A DNA stretch of 64,000 nt. Source: Anaerolineae bacterium (lineage in GTDB: Bacteria; Chloroflexota; Anaerolineae; S140-20). Positions within the stretch are counted from its first letter, which is position 1. Every line of letters begins with the position of its first letter. The notes under the pieces were generated by a model. That model was not told the DNA's origin. It ran no database searches and saw only the letters and a list, made by a program, of their open reading frames with translations. Shown here piece by piece: positions 2,592 to 58,650 of the stretch. A program made the translations under genes and the position numbers. The stretch is taken from assembly GCA_027021705.1 (NCBI GenBank), contig JALUTT010000020.1, positions 591 to 64,590 on the forward strand. The letters run 5' to 3'.

Positions 2592-7535
<4,944 letters not shown>

Positions 7536-14050: not shown

Positions 14051-14220
14051 GGTGAAGTCCGGTGAAGTCCTCAGTCCTCAGTCCTCGGTCCTTGCCCCTT
14101 GTCGCGTGGTCGCGTGGTCGCGTGGTCGCGTGGTCGCTTGGTCGCTTGGTCGGGTGGTCGGCGGTCGGCGGTCGGCGGTCAGCGGTCCACCAGCGGTCGG
14201 CGGTCCGCGGTCAGCGGTCG
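14051..14220. repeat. Composite short tandem repeats: GTCCTCA, (GTCGCGTG)x4 plus variants, (GCGGTCG)n
   Basis: Read directly; fills the gap between the 14211-16760 and 12700-14034 genes. Confidence 0.9.
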
Positions 14221-27790: not shown

Positions 27791-27849
27791 TGCAATTTGC
27801 AATTTGCAATTTGCAATTTGCAATTTGCGATTTGCAACTTGCAACTTGC
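27791..27849. repeat. Heptamer tandem repeat (TGCAATT)x5, TGCGATT, (TGCAACT)x2
   Basis: Read directly; lies between the stop at 27850 and the pelF RBS. Confidence 0.92.
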
Positions 27850-46051: not shown

Positions 46052-46270
46052 TGGTCGCTTGGTCCTCGGTCCTCAGTCCTCAGTCCTGGGTGCCTCCCCT
46101 GGCCGGCGGTCGGCGGTCGGTTGTCGGCGGTCATATCCGGTCCTCAGTCCTCAGCTCTTGCAACTTGCCCCTTGCAACTTGCCCCTTGCAACTTGCCCCC
46201 TTGCAACTTGCCCCTTGCAACTTGCCCCCTTGCAACTTGCCCCTTGCCCCCTGCCCCTCGCCCTCACTCC
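46052..46270. repeat. Composite heptamer repeats GTCCTCA, GCGGTCG and alternating TTGCAAC/TTGCCCC
   Basis: Read directly; lies between the kinase stop and the radical SAM start. Confidence 0.9.
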
Positions 46271-52361: not shown

Positions 52362-52500
52362 CTGTTCTCCGGGGCTTACGGAGAACTCCTGCCCGGTTCC
52401 TGCTTCGTCGAGGCTGCCGGCGTCGTGGCCGGTCTTACCGCCTCTCCACAGGCGTTCGGGGCTGCGCCCCCGGTTCCGGCGGAACCCGCCGTACCGCTGA
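52362..52500 (-). ncRNA. Putative TnpB omega-RNA / element right end (overlapping tnpB 3' end)
   Basis: Typical TnpB tail (NACGE..TKQEP), then ...gtaagccccggagaacag, which resembles IS607-type right ends. Boundaries approximate. Confidence 0.45.
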
Positions 52501-53608
52501 GGTTCCTGAGGTTGATGGCGGCGTTGAGATCCCGGTCCAACACCGCTCCGCAATGGGGACAGGTCCACTCTCGGTCGGACGGCCCCAACCCTTCGTGGAC
52601 CGCTCCGCAGCGATGGCAGGTCTTGCTGGAGGGGAAGAAGCGGTCGGCGACGCGGAGTTGGCTGCCCGACCAGGCGGCCTTGTACGTCAACTGTCGGCGG
52701 AACTCGTAGAAGCCCACGTCGGAGATGGCCCGGGCCAGGCGGCGGTTCTTCAACATCCCGCCCACGTTCAGGTCCTCGATGACGATCTCGCGCGGCCTCT
52801 CGCCATCGGGCTTGGTTCTCGCCACGATGGCGGCGGTGGCCTTGTGGAGGGCGTCCTGTCGGATATTATACAGGCGATGGTACAAACGGGCAAGCTTCCG
52901 GCGGGTCTTCTCGTAGTTCCTGCCGCCGCGCTTGCGCCGGGCCAGTTGGCGCTGAAGCCGGCGCAGCTTCCTCCGGGCCTTCTCCAGGGGGCGGGGGGCC
53001 TCGAAGCGCCGGCCGTCGCTCAACACGGCCATCGCCCGGACGCCCAGGTCAACGCCGAGGGGCTCGCCGGTGGCCGGCCTAACCTCCACCTCTTCGCGCA
53101 CCTGGACGCTGACGAACCAGCGTCCTGCCCGCTCCGACACGGTGGCCGAGAGGATGTGGGCGTCGGTCGGGATGTAGCCGTGCTCCTTGAGGCGGAGCCA
53201 GCCGATGCGTGGCAGCCGGATGCGGTCGTGCTCCACGCGGATGGCCCCATCAACGCGGAAGCGGAGCGGGCTGCGCTTGCGGGATTTGAACCGGGGGAAG
53301 CCCGGCTTCTCCCCGCGTCGGAGGCGGCGGAAGAAGGCCCGGAAGGCCCGGTCCAGGTCTCGGAGGGCGTTCTGGGGGATGCTCTTGGAGTAGTTGTACA
53401 GCCAGGGGTAGTCGGTCTTCTTGAGGGCGACGAGTTGGCGGTGTTGCTCGAAGGCGTTGCTGGAGCGACCGGTGGCCCGGTACTCGGCGATGCGGCGTTC
53501 GAGGCCCCAGTTCCAGGCCCAGCGGGCGACGCCGGCGCAGGCCACCAGCAGGGAGCGCTCCCGGTTGTTCAGCTTGAGTTCGACCTTGTAGGCTCTGAAG
53601 ATCTCCAT
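52376..53608 (-). CDS. tnpB: TnpB RNA-guided endonuclease (IS200/IS605/IS607 superfamily), no adjacent transposase
   Basis: AYKVEL, KPGFPRFK, RuvC GVDLG / VIEDL / DRDLNAA all intact, Zn finger CHRCG..CPHCG. Confidence 0.95.
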   Translation of the reverse strand: MEIFRAYKVELKLNNRERSLLVACAGVARWAWNWGLERRIAEYRATGRSSNAFEQHRQLVALKKTDYPWLYNYSKSIPQNALRDLDRAFRAFFRRLRRGEKPGFPRFKSRKRSPLRFRVDGAIRVEHDRIRLPRIGWLRLKEHGYIPTDAHILSATVSERAGRWFVSVQVREEVEVRPATGEPLGVDLGVRAMAVLSDGRRFEAPRPLEKARRKLRRLQRQLARRKRGGRNYEKTRRKLARLYHRLYNIRQDALHKATAAIVARTKPDGERPREIVIEDLNVGGMLKNRRLARAISDVGFYEFRRQLTYKAAWSGSQLRVADRFFPSSKTCHRCGAVHEGLGPSDREWTCPHCGAVLDRDLNAAINLRNLSGTAGSAGTGGAAPNACGEAVRPATTPAASTKQEPGRSSP

Positions 53609-53610
53609 AC

Positions 53611-53700
53611 CGGTTCTCCGTCCTCAGTGCCTCGGCGTCTCGGTCCTCATTGTCTCGGCCCTCGGTCTTTGCCTCCTGCCCCCTACCCCTTGCCCCCTGC
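53611..53700. repeat. Degenerate 7-8-mer repeats (CGGTCCT-like, TGCCCCC-like)
   Basis: Read directly upstream of tnpB. Confidence 0.7.
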
Positions 53701-54441
53701 CTTCCTCCGGGCCGTGCCGGGGTGGGTTTCGGTGAGGATGGCGGCCAGGATCTCGTCGGGGGGGGCGGTCAGCTCCCAGCCCAGGGAGGGTTTGGCGGGG
53801 TCTCGCCAGCGGGCCCACCCCAGGCGGAGGAGGACATCGCGGAAGCGGAGGTAGCGCTCCCGGCTCAGGTGGCGCTGCCAGAGGGCCCAGGCGGTGCCGA
53901 CGGCGGCGCAGCGGCGGACGAAGGTGCGGAAGTCGTCGGCCAGGCCGGGGCGGGGGGTGGGGAGGTCGTCGGAGCGGGCGCCGACCTGGTGGGCGGGGCG
54001 GGCGCCGACGAGGACGATCCGCTCGGCGGGGGGGCCGGCGGGAGGGGGCTTCTCTCCCGCCGCTTCGGGGCCGTTGGTTTCGAGGGACCACTCTTCAACG
54101 GCGCGGAGGAGGCGGGCGTGGTCGTGGATGCGCCACCAGAGGAGGGCGGTCCAGGCGGGGGGGGCGACGAGGCGGGCGACGGGGCCTGGGGAGAGGCCGG
54201 CCAGGGGGGCGAGGGAGGCGGCGGTGGCGGTGAGGCCGACGGCGAGGAGGGTGGCCTGGAGGAAGGGGACGGCGACGTGGGCGGCGAGGGAGGGGATGGC
54301 GACGGGGTGTTCGGCGTAGTGGTCGGCCTCGGTCGGTTCCTGGGGGTGGGGGGGCAGGGGGGGGCCGCCCCCGGCCCGGAAGGTGCGGGCGAGGCGGGGG
54401 CGGGCCGGCCCCTGGTAGCGGTAGTAGCGGTAGGTGTACAT
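53683..54441 (-). CDS. Hypothetical membrane protein (2 TM, Pro-rich linker, C-terminal wHTH-like domain)
   Basis: VAVPFLQATLLAVGL; ERYLRFRDVLLRLGWARW..GWELT; co-directional with tnpB. Confidence 0.6.
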   Translation of the reverse strand: MYTYRYYRYQGPARPRLARTFRAGGGPPLPPHPQEPTEADHYAEHPVAIPSLAAHVAVPFLQATLLAVGLTATAASLAPLAGLSPGPVARLVAPPAWTALLWWRIHDHARLLRAVEEWSLETNGPEAAGEKPPPAGPPAERIVLVGARPAHQVGARSDDLPTPRPGLADDFRTFVRRCAAVGTAWALWQRHLSRERYLRFRDVLLRLGWARWRDPAKPSLGWELTAPPDEILAAILTETHPGTARRKAGGKG

Positions 54442-54560
54442 CTCAGTCCTCAGTCTTCGGTCCTCAGTCCTCAGTCCTCGGTCCTCGGTCCTCCGTTCTT
54501 GGTCCTCGGTCCGCCGCCGGGCCGCCGGCCGCTAAGCCGCTCGGTCGGCGGTCGGTTGCC
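54442..54560. repeat. Heptamer repeats (GTCCTCA/GTCCTCG, GCGGTCG)
   Basis: Read directly; a closely similar block recurs at 54815-54910. Confidence 0.85.
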
Positions 54561-54777
54561 GGCAGAGCCGGGCGGCCTCTTGGTAGAAGCGGCGGAAGTC
54601 GTCGGGAGTGGTGGCGTCGCTGAGGGTGCCGACGAGGGGGATGCCGCCGGGGAGGCGGGGGCCCTCCTCGCCGGCCCGGTCGAGGCCGAGGCCCAGGAAG
54701 CGCTCCAGGCGGGCCAGGAGCCGGTCGCCGGCCTCGGTCTCGAAGAGAAACCAGGTGATGGGGTTGGTGAAGGACAT
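54532..54777 (-). CDS. Small hypothetical protein (81 aa)
   Basis: MSFTNPITWFLFETEAGDRLLARLERFLGL...; strong GGAGGAG RBS. Confidence 0.65.
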   Translation of the reverse strand: MSFTNPITWFLFETEAGDRLLARLERFLGLGLDRAGEEGPRLPGGIPLVGTLSDATTPDDFRRFYQEAARLCRQPTADRAA

Positions 54778-54794
54778 CGTGCTGCTCCTCCCTT

Positions 54795-55052
54795 TCCGTC
54801 CACGGTCCGTAGTCCGCAGTCCTCGGTCCTCAGTCCTTGGTCCTCAGTCCTTGGTCCTCGGTCCGCCGCCGGGCCGCCGGCCGCCAGGCCGCTCGGTCGG
54901 CGGTCGGCGGCCGTCCGTCGGCGGTCGGCCGTCGGTCGTCGGCGGTCGGTTGGAAAACGGCACCGCCGGTCCCGGTGGGGGCACGGGGCCGGCGGTGGAG
55001 TCGGGGGCCCTCTGTCGGCGGTCCGCCGTCGGTCGTCGGCGGTCGGCGGTCG
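54795..55052. repeat. Heptamer repeats flanking a hairpin
   Basis: GTCCTCA/GTCCTTG and GCGGTCG/GTCGGCG runs. Confidence 0.8.
54953..54997 (-). terminator. Putative intrinsic terminator/attenuator in the leader of the 54777-tnpB unit
   Basis: Minus strand caccgccggccccg-loop-cgggaccggcggtg-ccgttttcc. Confidence 0.55.
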
Positions 55053-55055
55053 GGT

Positions 55056-55170
55056 TTGACAGGAGGCCCATCCGCTGGTATACTGATACCAGCCTGCCGC
55101 CGGTGGCGATGGCACCGGGGGTGGGTTAGGGCGGCGTCGGTGGTGCGACACCGGCGTCGCCCGCTTTCTA
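55056..55170 (+). ncRNA. Putative ~80-nt small RNA A with its own promoter and terminator hairpin
   Basis: TTGACA(55056)-17 bp-TATACT(55079); 5' AGCCTGCCGCCGGTGG; 14-bp stem 55129-55162 with two G.U pairs valid only on the + strand, then gctttct. Confidence 0.6.
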
Positions 55171-55534
55171 TTCGGTTGTCATCGTCCTCGGTCCGCAGTT
55201 CTCGGTCCTCGATCCTCCGTCCGTCTTAATCCGTGGCCCCTCCTTTTTGCCGGCGGCAGTCGGGTCGAAGGGGCCAGGTGACCCCCGCGCCGGCGGCTGC
55301 CCCCTAGCGTCGCGCTCGTCGGCCCCGGCCCCTGAGGAGCGCGAAGGGCGGCCCCCCGCCGGTGGCGTGCCGGGAGCCGCCCTTTCGGAGACGAAACGAA
55401 GAGGGCGGCCCCCACCACCGGGGACCGCCCCTTGTTGGCCTTGGCCGAAAAGATTCCCACTTTCCCCCTCGCCCCCGCCGGGCCGGGCGTCGGTCGGGCC
55501 GCCTCCGGCCCGGGTGGGCGACGACGGGGGGGCG

Positions 55535-55627
55535 TGGTATAATCCTCTCAGCCCCTGCCGCCGGTGGGTGCGGTGGCGGGGGTCAGCGGCCGTCGGGAGT
55601 CTCCCCCTCCCGGCGGTCGCGCCATTT
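55535..55627 (+). ncRNA. Putative ~80-nt small RNA B, paralog of A
   Basis: TGG-TATAAT(55538); 5' AGCCCCTGCCGCCGGTGG; GGTCAG then a 14-bp stem 55586-55620 with two G.U pairs, then gccattt. Confidence 0.55.
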
Positions 55628-55634
55628 GGGGGCC

Positions 55635-55663
55635 ATTATCGCACAACCGTTTCAGTTCGTCAA
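55635..55663 (-). promoter_or_regulatory. Putative sigma70 promoter driving the long leader and the 54777/54441/tnpB genes
   Basis: Minus strand TTGACG-17 bp-GATAAT with TG extension. Confidence 0.6.
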
Positions 55664-55735
55664 GGGGGTTTTCATCCCTCCCCGACCAACCGACCAACCG
55701 GCCAATGCAACATTCAGACCGGGGTCTGGGAGGTC

Positions 55736-57940
55736 TCACTCTTCTGCCAGGCGAAGGCTCAGCCCCGAGTGGCGCTCGGCGACCTTGTTGTTGCGCACGG
55801 CGATGCGCAGGGCTTTCCAGCTCCCCACCAGCACCACCAGCTTCTTCGCCCGCGTCACCGCCGTGTAGAGCAGGTTCCGCTGCAACATCAGGTAGTGCTG
55901 GGTCAGCACCGGCATCACCACCACCGGGTACTCGCTCCCCTGGCTGCGATGGACGGAGATGGCGTAGGCGTGGGTCAGCTCATCGGCCTCCCCCCAGTCG
56001 TAGACCACCCGCCGCTCGTCCATCTGGACGGTGATCGTCTGGTTCACGCCGTCTATGGCCACGATCCGCCCGATGTCGCCGTTGAAGACCTCTTTATCAT
56101 AGTCGTTCCGCACCTGCATCACCCGGTCCCCCACCCGGAAGACCCGTCCGCCCAGCCGGCGCTCCGTCCGGGCCAGGGAGGGCGGGTTGAGGGCCTCCTG
56201 CAAGCGGGCGTTCAGGCTGGCGACGCCGCAGGCCCCCCGGTACATCGGGGCCAGGACCTGGATCTCGGTCAGCGGGTCGTAGCCGAACTTGCGGGGGATG
56301 CGCCGCTGCACCAGGTCCACGATGAGGGCCGCTGCCTCCTCTGGGTCCTCCTGGGTGAACAGGAAGAAGTCCTCCCCCTGGTTGACGATGGGCATCTCCC
56401 CTCGGTTGATGCGATGGGCGTTGACGACGATGAAGCTGTCAACCGCCTGGCGGAAGATTTGGGTCAGGTGGACGACGGCCACCCGCCCCGAGGCGATGAT
56501 GTCCCGCAGGACATCGCCGGCCCCCACGCTGGGCAACTGGTCCACGTCACCCACCAAGAGCAGGTGGGCCGCCGGGTCCAGCGCTTTCAGCAGGTGGTTG
56601 GTCAGCAGGAGGTCCAACATGCTCGCCTCGTCCACGATGAGCATGTCCACGGGCAGCGGCCTCTCCTCGTTGAACTGAAAGCCCTCGGTGGGGCGGTAGC
56701 CCAGCAGCCGGTGGACGGTCTTCGCCGGCCGCCCCGTCGCCTCGGCGAGCCGCTTGGCAGCCCGGCCCGTGGGGGCGCAGAGGGCGTAGCGGTAGCCGAA
56801 GGTCTCCAGTGCCCCGATGACCGCCTGCACCGTGACCGTCTTCCCGGTGCCCGGTCCGCCGGTCAGGACGGTGACCTTGTGGGTGAGGGCGGTGCGGACG
56901 GCCCGGCGCTGCTCCTCAGAGAGGCGCACGGGGCTTCTGGCCTCCAGCCGGGCCAGAAGCCCCGCCCAGTCCACGGTGCGGAAGCGGGCCAGCCGGTCGG
57001 TCGGCCCCTCCACCATCGCCCGCAGCCGGTTGCTGACCCCCACCTCGCCGTAGTAGAAGGGGGCCAGGTAGACGGCCCGCTCCTCCCGCAGGGAGGTGGC
57101 CCTACCTTGCCGCTCCTCGGCGGTGGGATAGGCCAGTGTCTCCCGCTTCACCTGCTCCTCGGCGTCCAGATCGGCCAGGGCCTGGGCGACGGCCTCCGGG
57201 GCGACCTCCAGCAGCTCTGCGGCCGTGGTGATCAACGTCTCTTCGGGGACGTAGACGTGCCCCTGGTCGGCCATCTGGCTGAGGGCGTAAGCGATGCCGG
57301 CCTGGAGGCGGGAGGGGGCATCGAGGGGGATGCCCAGGTGGCGGGCGATCTTGTCGGCCGTCTTGAAGCCGATCCCCCACACATCCCGCGCCAGGCGGTA
57401 GGGGTCCTGCTGCACCACGGCGATGGCCTCGTCGCCGTAGGTCTTGTAGATGCGGACGGCCAGGTTGGTGCTGACGCCATGGCTCTGGAGGAAGAGCATC
57501 ACGTCCTTGATGGCCTTCTGCTCCTCCCAGGCCCGAGCGATAGCGGCGGCCCGCTTGGGACCGACGCCCAGCACTTCCCGCAGCCGGTGGGGTTCCTCAT
57601 CCAGGATCCGCAGCGTCTCCAGGCCGAAGCGCTTGACGATGCGGCTGGCCGTCACCGGCCCCACGCCCTTGACGAGGCCGGAGCCCAGGTAGCGGCGGAT
57701 GCCCTCGACGGTGGCGGGGAGGAGTTGCTGACACCGTTCCGCCTTGAACTGACGCCCGTAGCGCGGGTGGGTGATCCAGACCCCCTCCAGGCGCAGGCGT
57801 TCGCCGGGGGTAACCTGGGGGAGCTCCCCCACTACCGTGACCAACTCCCGCTGCCCGGGGACGTGGAGCCGGAGCACGGTGTAGCCGTTCTCTTCGTTGT
57901 AGTAGGTGATCCGTTCGACGGAGCCTTCGATCTGCTCCAC
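55736..57940 (-). CDS. recD2: ATP-dependent RecD-like (RecD2) helicase
   Basis: GSVERITY, YLGSGLVKGVG, WGIGFKTAD, TGGPGTGKT, IVDEASM, VGDVDQLPSVG, AISVHRSQGSEY, YTAVTRAK. Start set at GTG 57940. Confidence 0.93.
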   Translation of the reverse strand: MEQIEGSVERITYYNEENGYTVLRLHVPGQRELVTVVGELPQVTPGERLRLEGVWITHPRYGRQFKAERCQQLLPATVEGIRRYLGSGLVKGVGPVTASRIVKRFGLETLRILDEEPHRLREVLGVGPKRAAAIARAWEEQKAIKDVMLFLQSHGVSTNLAVRIYKTYGDEAIAVVQQDPYRLARDVWGIGFKTADKIARHLGIPLDAPSRLQAGIAYALSQMADQGHVYVPEETLITTAAELLEVAPEAVAQALADLDAEEQVKRETLAYPTAEERQGRATSLREERAVYLAPFYYGEVGVSNRLRAMVEGPTDRLARFRTVDWAGLLARLEARSPVRLSEEQRRAVRTALTHKVTVLTGGPGTGKTVTVQAVIGALETFGYRYALCAPTGRAAKRLAEATGRPAKTVHRLLGYRPTEGFQFNEERPLPVDMLIVDEASMLDLLLTNHLLKALDPAAHLLLVGDVDQLPSVGAGDVLRDIIASGRVAVVHLTQIFRQAVDSFIVVNAHRINRGEMPIVNQGEDFFLFTQEDPEEAAALIVDLVQRRIPRKFGYDPLTEIQVLAPMYRGACGVASLNARLQEALNPPSLARTERRLGGRVFRVGDRVMQVRNDYDKEVFNGDIGRIVAIDGVNQTITVQMDERRVVYDWGEADELTHAYAISVHRSQGSEYPVVVMPVLTQHYLMLQRNLLYTAVTRAKKLVVLVGSWKALRIAVRNNKVAERHSGLSLRLAEE

Positions 57941-57957: not shown

Positions 57958-58381
57958 GTCGCCCTCCCGCAGGCCACGCGGTGCCCGGCGACCGCCATCG
58001 CTCATCGGAGGCTGCCCACGGCGTGCTTCTGGCCGTGGGGAGGACCTGCGGGAGGGTCCTCGCAGTCGCCCTCCCGCAGGCCACGCGGTGCCCGGCGACC
58101 GCCATCGCTCATCGGAGGCTGCCCACGGCGTGCTTCTGGCCGTGGGGAGGACCTGCGGGAGGGTCCTCGCAGTCACCCTCCCGCAGGCCACGCGGTGCCC
58201 GGCGACCGCCATCGCTCATTGGAGGCTGCCCACGGCGTGCTTCTGGCCGTGGGGAGGACCTGCGGGAGGGTCCTCGCAGTCGCCCTCCCGCAGGCCACGC
58301 GGTGCCCGGCGACGGCGATGGCGCATCGGAGGCTGCCTATGACGCGCTTCAGGCCGTAGGGGAGACCTGCGGGAAGGTCTC
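57958..58381. repeat. Four tandem 107-bp units, each bounded by CCCTCCCGCAGG...CCTGCGGGAGGG inverted ends
   Basis: Unit starts at 57958, 58065, 58172, 58279; units 1-3 near-identical, unit 4 diverged. Confidence 0.92.
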
Positions 58382-58608: not shown

Positions 58609-58650
58609 CCACGCAACACGTAACACGCAACACGCAACACGCAACACGCG
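58609..58650. repeat. Heptamer repeat (ACGCAAC)x5
   Basis: acgcaac acgtaac acgcaac acgcaac acgcaac, just upstream of the coaBC start. Confidence 0.88.

Follow-up and report, generated by a model that had tools for sequence, protein, structure and literature searches.

Background

Countertranscript-driven attenuation is known from the plasmids pT181, pIP501 and pAMbeta1, and from the Anti-Q/prgQ system of pCF10. Among phages, the P4 CI and P1/P7 c4 RNAs are processed from a transcript of the same sense, their targets being short, repeated boxes; P22 has a short antisense RNA called sar. The small RNA SymR is described as blocking translation without any need for RNase III, by covering a start codon and its ribosome-binding site (PMC4147584). 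From sequence conserved upstream of SymE genes, Kawano et al. inferred that small RNAs control a subset of them (PMC1891008). In this report, we analyze two small-RNA units, called A and B, in a window of 64,000 nucleotides (nt), by which we mean the whole stretch of DNA analyzed, on contig JALUTT010000020.1 (GCA_027021705.1) of an Anaerolineae bacterium (class Anaerolineae, phylum Chloroflexota). Their sequence features indicate that A and B are real, paralogous small-RNA genes of ~80 nt, each with its own promoter and its own terminator hairpin. Together, they probably act as a SymR-like pair of cis-antisense RNAs that keeps leader-dependent genes silent.

Like SymR, the window RNAs are of ~77 to 83 nt and consist of two hairpins. 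They share with it an AG(U/C)C start, the linker G(A/G)U(U/C)AG, a GUG...CAC apex in hairpin 2, CGC after the stem, and a promoter of their own that looks constitutive. Unit B is also, like SymR, fully antisense to the 5' end of the mRNA predicted from the promoter that faces it; unit A lacks such a promoter. Unlike SymR, the RNAs lie off any Shine-Dalgarno sequence or start codon, as do all 43 members of a set from the same phylum (see below), and therefore SymR's translation-block mechanism cannot apply here. The downstream products of 81 and 252 amino acids (aa) also lack a SymE_toxin (PF08845) domain and belong to no Pfam family, a terminator follows the overlap, and the window has two units in series.

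By analogy, the layout matches countertranscript-driven attenuation of plasmids. In both cases, a structured antisense RNA and a nascent leader come with an intrinsic terminator just past the paired segment, and pCF10 also has convergent promoters. Unlike the plasmid systems, the units match no Rfam family of countertranscript RNAs, anti-terminator pairing is weakly indicated in the family and not for the window, and the genes presumably controlled are recombinase-side element genes rather than replication genes. The P4 CI and P1/P7 c4 RNAs resemble the window RNAs as small element RNAs that prevent downstream expression through complementary leader segments; the window RNAs differ in having their own opposite-strand promoters and in being complementary over their whole length. 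A first-pass annotation, made from the letters of the window, had likened the units to c4-type RNAs. The covariance models did not bear this out: neither c4 nor any other family of curated RNAs was matched at threshold, and c4 was absent even among the seven Rfam matches at E <= 10 in 54400-56000. The pR/pL switch of coliphage 186 and the Pe/Pc switch of phage P2 have convergent promoters ~60 to 200 bp apart at an element's decision point. They depend chiefly on repressor proteins and on interference between polymerases, and the likeness drawn here is one of layout.

Results and discussion

Two small-RNA genes of one plan

The units are found in a non-coding stretch of 958 nt, bounded by the stop codon at 55736, where a RecD2-type helicase gene ends, and by position 54777, where an 81-aa open reading frame (ORF) starts. 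The genes flanking this stretch are all on the minus strand. The features of the units are as follows.

55056 to 55084, plus strand: promoter P1 of unit A, TTGACA-17-TATACT, with TG before the -10 box (11 of 12 matches, score 11.5)
55091 to 55170, plus strand: small RNA A, consisting of hairpin 1, linker GGGUUAG, 14-bp terminator hairpin 2 and U-rich tail (from its fold and model matches)
55535 to 55543, plus strand: extended -10 promoter P1 of unit B, TGGTATAAT (score 9.5, weak -35 box)
55550 to 55627, plus strand: small RNA B, with the two-hairpin plan of A and linker GGGUCAG (from its fold and model matches)

The -10 box of unit A ends 7 nt ahead of the A in AGCC at 55091, which is the predicted RNA start. 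For unit B, the RNA is predicted to begin at ~55550, also with AGCC, and the spacing between -10 box and AGCC equals that in relatives. Nearly all relatives have a -10 box, mostly TGnTAnAAT, 4 to 5 nt before the model start, and this conserved distance places the start of the RNA at the A of AGCC.

Both RNAs fold better than their opposite strands. RNA A has a predicted energy of -57.9 kcal/mol (z -6.6), compared with -35.4 kcal/mol for its opposite strand, and RNA B has -58.7 kcal/mol (z -3.2), compared with -40.5 kcal/mol. In each, the 14-bp hairpin 2 is G+C-rich and is followed by the U-rich tail. A promoter scan of 54400-56000 returned two sites only, namely P1 of unit A and a minus-strand site at 55663-55635, where 0.0 were expected. 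The first-pass annotation had described two plus-strand units of one plan, and the promoters, the two hairpins of each unit and the poorer folds of the opposite strands agree with this description.

BLAST-type searches of the window's own genome with A and B uncovered a third copy, C (C2:50058-50157, equal to L010 1501-1600), which is 86% identical to B over 100 nt, and no further copy. Among A, B and C, 8 of the 14 pairs of helix 2 are altered on both sides with pairing kept, as was claimed earlier when the stems were said to differ in sequence and still pair. A covariance model built from B and C alone recovered unit A at 31.6 bits (E 1.5e-5 in 67 kb); its next match (17.6 bits) was the reverse strand of B itself. 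In hairpin 1, the 5' arm is an identical 14 nt in A and B and the 3' arms differ. With this common arm, each RNA could pair with both antisense segments.

Copy C is on the minus strand between galT-like and cinA-like genes and is antisense to both. A candidate facing promoter for it, TTGAAA-17-CATAAT, was rejected, because its spacer is really 12 nt and its score 7.0, leaving no convincing P2. Copy C is possibly decaying or domesticated. A fourth candidate, C107:22469-22554 (30.9 bits), was also rejected, since it corresponds to hairpin 2 only. It is a gene terminator that carries the hairpin 2 sequence of B and C (GGCCGUCGGG...CCCGGCGGUC) without hairpin 1.

Relatives and covariation

BLAST searches of 60 related genomes with the units gave only short chance matches inside coding sequence, and nhmmer agreed. 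We refer below to two covariance models. R2 was made from the three copies A, B and C, and was applied to 151 genomes of the class at E <= 0.05, the window's own genome being counted. R3 was made from the 23 best sequences, all from the window's phylum, and was applied to 151 genomes across the phylum at E <= 0.001. Full-length matches to R2 occur in 23 of the 151 genomes of the class, and R3 matches in 10 of the 151 phylum-wide, other classes included. Units A and B themselves score 69.1 and 68.3 bits with R3. Two genomes from other classes of the phylum, G164 and G273 (loci L073-L096), have 8 and 12 copies of the RNA, several of them on short contigs, as repeated mobile elements would give.

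In the 23-sequence alignment, 96.5% of cells are paired, compared with 38 to 43% when the partners are slid by one to three columns, and 23 of the 27 base pairs have changed on both sides. The covariance-model search for homologs that the first-pass annotation proposed has thus returned full-length relatives with covarying pairs. Fitting of the alignments (A5, A7 and A9) to the model tilts their pair counts in its favor, but affects neither the slide control nor the strand bias of G.U pairs. That bias is strong, with 101 G.U cells and 5 A-C cells, and it indicates that it is the transcript from P1 that is structured.

Kinship to SymR and wider distribution

At gathering thresholds, an Rfam scan of the window reported tRNA only. 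Below threshold, the one notable match was to the Rfam symR model (RF01809), for unit A at 35.2 bits (E 1.6e-4 in 1.6 kb; the cut-off is 61 bits), and unit B was absent at E <= 10. Among 20 loci of relatives, two matched, L028 at 44.1 bits and L032 at 33.7 bits, again below the cut-off. The Rfam check suggested in the first-pass annotation therefore gave a match to symR, although under threshold (35 to 44 versus 61 bits). In the reciprocal direction, R3 found the annotated E. coli symR (5836-5912) at L351 5834-5919 with 38.8 bits (E 3.2e-8), and the next best match in this 10-kb locus, with filters off, reached 11.6 bits. From these reciprocal covariance-model matches, we conclude that the window RNAs are distant members of a SymR-like family. 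An alignment of 75 sequences that includes E. coli SymR is 93.3% paired, compared with 35 to 44% when slid, and 22 of its 27 pairs covary.

The family extends far beyond the phylum. Collections were scanned with a pattern from the family alignment that matched at least 120 stretches in each, and the 80 loci listed per collection were scored with R3. In viral contigs, 73 of the 80 loci listed (L111-L190, of at least 120) scored 33 to 66 bits, and in named genomes 46 of the 80 listed (L231-L310, of at least 120) scored 35 to 66 bits. The matches in named genomes come from many phyla, and include Enterobacter, Buttiauxella, Paraburkholderia, Streptomyces, cyanobacteria, Acidobacteriota, Planctomycetes and Anaerolineae. 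Direct blastn comparisons, of an Enterobacter member with E. coli genomes and of a viral member with a phage collection, gave no match.

Outside the window's phylum, the RNA starts with (Y)AGCCAU, which is the complement of a start codon in the context AUGGCU, and the complement of AGGAG follows a few bases on. E. coli SymR, opposite the start of symE, begins with AGUCAU. The AGCCAT start was found in 61 of 76 viral matches among those listed, versus 0 of 43 members in the window's phylum. A count of 74 of 75 in alignment A9 is biased, because its loci were chosen for an opposing ORF. A consensus facing promoter is present in only 9 of 73 members outside the phylum; in the window's phylum it is usual (17 of 24).

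We assigned Pfam families to 56 opposing ORFs (61 less four shorter than 60 aa and one duplicate) of the listed loci: HNH_3 (12), HNH (7), HNH_5 (7), Endonuclease_7 (5), GIY-YIG (4), Bro-N (2) and SymE_toxin (1). Phage contigs commonly carry SymR-like cassettes, and by these domain annotations the genes opposite them are mostly nucleases of homing type. SymE_toxin was found opposite the RNA in other phyla. We found no description of SymR-like RNAs opposite nuclease genes or in this phylum, and none of their wider distribution, in the literature searched, which excluded subscription journals and supplements.

A facing promoter and terminators in the leader

The minus strand opposite the units carries the following features.

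55635 to 55663, minus strand: convergent promoter P2, TTGACG-17-GATAAT with TG (score 10.5)
55392 to 55431 (hairpin 55431-55402), minus strand: terminator-like hairpin of 13 pairs with U-rich tail CTTCGTTTCG, 114 nt after the antisense-B segment
54952 to 54997 (hairpin 54961-54997), minus strand: intrinsic terminator with a stem of 12 and tail TGCCGTTTT, 93 nt after the antisense-A segment and before the first gene

The -10 box of P2 ends 4 nt from the model end of RNA B, and the P2 transcript begins inside the 3' tail of RNA B, to which it is fully antisense. From P2 to the first ORF with a good Shine-Dalgarno sequence (start 54777) is ~858 nt. A minus-strand promoter well ahead of the first clear ORF, and a minus-strand terminator before the first gene, had both been pointed out in the first-pass annotation; we recovered the former at 55663-55635 and the latter as hairpin 54961-54997, an inverted repeat of 14 nt (93%), with its U run. 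A fold of the whole 689-nt leader added nothing beyond the local hairpins.

The same layout recurs in relatives. For this purpose, 45 matches were reduced to 43 loci, as three on one contig had a common label. A convergent P2 scoring at least 9.5 (of 12.5) was detected in 17 of 24 relatives, versus 2% of 960 control windows. Its -10 box ends 4 to 35 nt from the 3' end of the RNA, just beyond the RNA terminator, and P1 and P2 face each other ~100 to 130 bp apart. A strong terminator on the P2 strand (stem of 9 to 14 pairs, U-rich tail) lies within 130 nt after the overlap at 24 of the 43 loci. The earlier claim that the plus-strand RNAs are antisense to the P2 leader finds support in their independent promoters, in their structure and in these leader terminators.

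The layout suggests how expression, repression and termination might be connected. The first ~80 nt of a P2 transcript would be fully complementary to RNA B, and RNA A would be complementary to a second stretch, ~460 nt farther along this leader, provided that the transcript passes the intervening terminator-like hairpins. The RNAs would silence the leader-dependent 81-aa and 252-aa genes, which appear to be remnants of an integrative mobile element, through RNA-RNA pairing with the nascent leader combined with head-on transcription. Either transcripts would then stop at the terminator behind each antisense segment (55431-55402 and 54997-54961), or degradation of the paired RNA would follow.

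If termination is controlled, an alternative anti-terminator pairing might be expected, and its support in the family is weak. With leaders cut just ahead of the terminator 3' arm, pairing between the terminator 5' arm and the antisense segment averaged 0.49, versus 0.35 for shuffled arms (Wilcoxon p 0.004, n = 24 non-independent loci), and duplex energies had a mean z of -0.95, versus -0.28 for the 3' arm control.

Several observations weigh against silencing of the leader by the two RNAs. Unit A has no facing promoter (best score 6.0), and the promoter scan found none on the minus strand from 55400 to 54780. P2 transcripts would meet at least three terminator-like hairpins before unit A, and may never reach A or the genes. 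The window units' own anti-terminator pairing is not significant (0.61 to 0.62 versus 0.44 to 0.48 for shuffles, 25 to 37% of which reach it), and their duplex z values are -0.67 and -0.89. The promoters of copy C are weak on both sides (scores 8.0 and 7.0), and all symR matches fall under the Rfam cut-off. Moreover, the recombinase of relatives is missing at the window locus, which may be a decaying remnant.

Downstream genes and element context

Downstream of the leader, three features were considered.

54532 to 54777, minus strand: 81-aa ORF with Shine-Dalgarno sequence GGGAGGAG; no Pfam or PHROG family
53683 to 54441, minus strand: 252-aa ORF with possible membrane segments and, weakly, a C-terminal winged-helix-like part; no Pfam family
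52362 to 53704, minus strand: TnpB insertion sequence (tnpB at 52376-53608; Pfam OrfB_IS605, Cas12f1-like_TNB and HTH_OrfB_IS605)

The 81-aa ORF starts 312 nt past unit A. Weak relatives of its product were found in 8 of 300 other genomes, and at two of these eight loci the small RNA is upstream and antisense (62.7 bits); one of them has the order RNA, terminator, small ORFs including the relative, and serine recombinase. Relatives of the 252-aa protein, for which a protein atlas gave weak structural leads only, were found in 7 of 300 other genomes. At one locus (L105), an antisense RNA is followed by the complement of P1, a terminator, a Shine-Dalgarno sequence with ATG, and a relative of the 252-aa protein. 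The two downstream proteins singled out in the first-pass annotation therefore have relatives that sit behind the same module of RNA plus terminator in other genomes.

In relatives of the units, the facing strand leads through small ORFs to either a tyrosine integrase or a large serine recombinase (Resolvase, Recombinase, Zn_ribbon_recom). An HTH_17 protein of 65 to 80 aa is often upstream, and nearby genes encode ParA, an FtsK-like protein, primases and the terminase large subunit. In the complete genome G119, two RNA copies differ in step with neighboring element genes, so we assign the RNA to the elements and not to a host target site. The window thus resembles the control region on the recombinase side of an integrative element whose recombinase has been lost. 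Comparison of RecD2 neighborhoods did not set the element borders: G001 shows no synteny beyond RecD2 and no RNA within 10 kb downstream, the G002 copy is at a contig end, and G003 gave no match.

The first-pass annotation had placed TnpB at the end of the operon. A 98% identical partial copy of the TnpB element on another contig (C81, 25399-26353) ends at the position corresponding to window position 52362, and the 90 nt before the tnpB start (53616-53704) match four other contigs (C92, C47, C181 and C99). Based on this copy and these left-end repeats elsewhere in the genome, TnpB is an insertion sequence in its own right, lying against the end of the 252-aa gene and outside the system. The units were also considered as a TnpB guide (omega) RNA, and this was rejected: they are 1.5 to 2 kb upstream of tnpB, on the opposite strand and beyond the element ends at ~53704 and 52362.

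Repeats are frequent around these genes. A 119-nt segment is duplicated with 86% identity, 352 nt apart (54443-54561 and 54795-54913), one copy lying before the 81-aa ORF and the other covering both the 3' end of that ORF and the region where the 252-aa ORF starts. Arrays of 7-nt repeats (GGTCCTC, GGTCGGC, CTTGCCC, TGCAATT, CACGCAA and others) fill many intergenic stretches of the genome; in the window, they are at 14066-14220, 27791-27849, 46061-46263, 53611-53701, 54442-54512, 54798-54949, 55014-55053, 55184-55222 and 58610-58649. Those before the 81-aa and 252-aa ORFs consist of repeated GAGGACY on the minus strand. The annotated 5' end of the RecD2-type ORF lies in a tandem repeat (57958-58379) with 3.9 copies of a 107-nt unit (94% matches), which gives repeated MAVAGHRVACGR... 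frames.

Repeated words in the leader

A further claim in the first-pass annotation was that a seed word recurs in boxes along the leader, two of which lie in the following hairpins.

55343 to 55385, strand unassigned: hairpin holding the CCGCCGGTGGCG box (55356-55367); 88% identical over 17 nt to 55092-55108
55236 to 55278, minus strand: hairpin holding CTGCCGCCGG (55250-55259); 16 nt are 88% complementary to 55088-55103

The seed word CCGCCGGTGG is present, but is not a single-stranded seed, as it lies in the 5' arm of hairpin 1. It occurs six times in the window, versus 0.71 expected; one of 100 shuffles reaches six, and three of the six occurrences are far from the locus. CTGCCGCCGG occurs four times, versus 0.95 expected; none of 100 shuffles reaches four, and two of the four are the units and one is at 55250-55259 on the minus strand. 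The boxes at 55356-55365 and 55250-55259 thus exist with modest significance. There is no need for a logic in which they are addressed in trans, since the leader at the locus of each RNA is complementary to that RNA throughout. Hairpin 55343-55385 may be a decayed partial copy of the first arm of unit A, and CTGCCGCCGG at 55250-55259 could, judging from complementarity, pair with the antisense-A or antisense-B segment. The match reported in the 3' arm of the terminator amounts to 8 nt in common with the antisense-A segment. An anti-terminator would require such a match, although chance could account for it in DNA this rich in G+C.

Alternative explanations

One alternative is that the units are left over from the control region of an integrative element and no longer regulate anything, the 81-aa and 252-aa genes being silent or independently expressed. 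The loss of the recombinase, the insertion of TnpB against the 252-aa gene, the lack of a P2 for unit A, the weak promoters of copy C, the resemblance of hairpin 55343-55385 to a partial extra copy, and the related genome G001, which has neither synteny nor RNA downstream of RecD2, would all fit such decay. We consider it unlikely, given that the promoter of unit A still has 11 of 12 matches, that both RNAs fold perfectly with compensatory changes, and that both ORFs are intact, the first with a strong Shine-Dalgarno sequence. It is improbable that the common word CCGCCGGTGG acts in trans on repeated complementary leader boxes, as in P4 CI and P1 c4 immunity. The word is base-paired in both RNAs, the segment is variable and covarying in the wider family, half of the word's occurrences in the window are elsewhere, full complementarity in cis already accounts for targeting, and no c4 or related Rfam family is matched. 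These points stand against the identity of the 14-nt 5' arm of hairpin 1 in A and B despite differing 3' arms, and against the recurrence of the word or its complement at 55356-55365, at 55250-55259 and in the 3' arm of terminator 54961-54997.

The arrangement of P1 and P2, facing each other at close range in 17 of 24 relatives, could also mean that head-on promoters alone matter, through polymerase collision or occlusion, with the small RNA as a by-product. A by-product would not preserve 27 base pairs by compensatory changes with a strong G.U strand bias, and unit A is without a facing promoter, so we give transcriptional interference alone a slim chance, slimmer than that of a seed acting in trans. 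Finally, the units adjoin recombinase genes in several relatives, as would attachment sites for a recombinase or other protein-binding sites in DNA. That they are such sites and not RNA genes is scarcely credible, given the conserved signals for promoter and terminator, a G.U bias specific to one strand, and the G119 copies, which differ together with neighboring element genes. A SymR-like antisense pair that silences leader-dependent genes thus remains the reading that we prefer.

Conclusions

The observation behind the first-pass annotation was largely right, and its idea of antisense control and attenuation was a fair reading, although attenuation itself we infer. Its description of the system as undescribed does not stand in view of the reciprocal matches to SymR. 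With this kinship, and with TnpB outside the system, the locus is, on the basis of model matches, of SymR type and not a new kind, here with two units in series.

More broadly, we tentatively propose that SymR is the one characterized member of a very wide family of promoter and antisense-RNA cassettes, carried by phages and mobile elements across many bacterial phyla. Elsewhere the start-codon form (AUGGCU) would be placed on potentially harmful genes, on phage contigs mostly homing-type nucleases (HNH, endonuclease VII, GIY-YIG) besides Bro-N and SymE, and in this phylum the cassette would have been rebuilt, off the start codon, as a leader switch with a facing consensus promoter and a terminator after the overlap, ahead of recombinase-side operons. 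The window, with two in series, would be a two-checkpoint attenuator. For annotation, the model recovers many small-RNA genes that escape the curated library at its present cut-off. If the proposed function is true, a type I antitoxin RNA known mainly from enterobacteria would be extended to a distant phylum and to phages generally, and one RNA scaffold would have two uses, either blocking translation at a start codon or acting on a leader with a terminator. The mobile elements of this phylum would then control their recombinase-side genes by small RNA.

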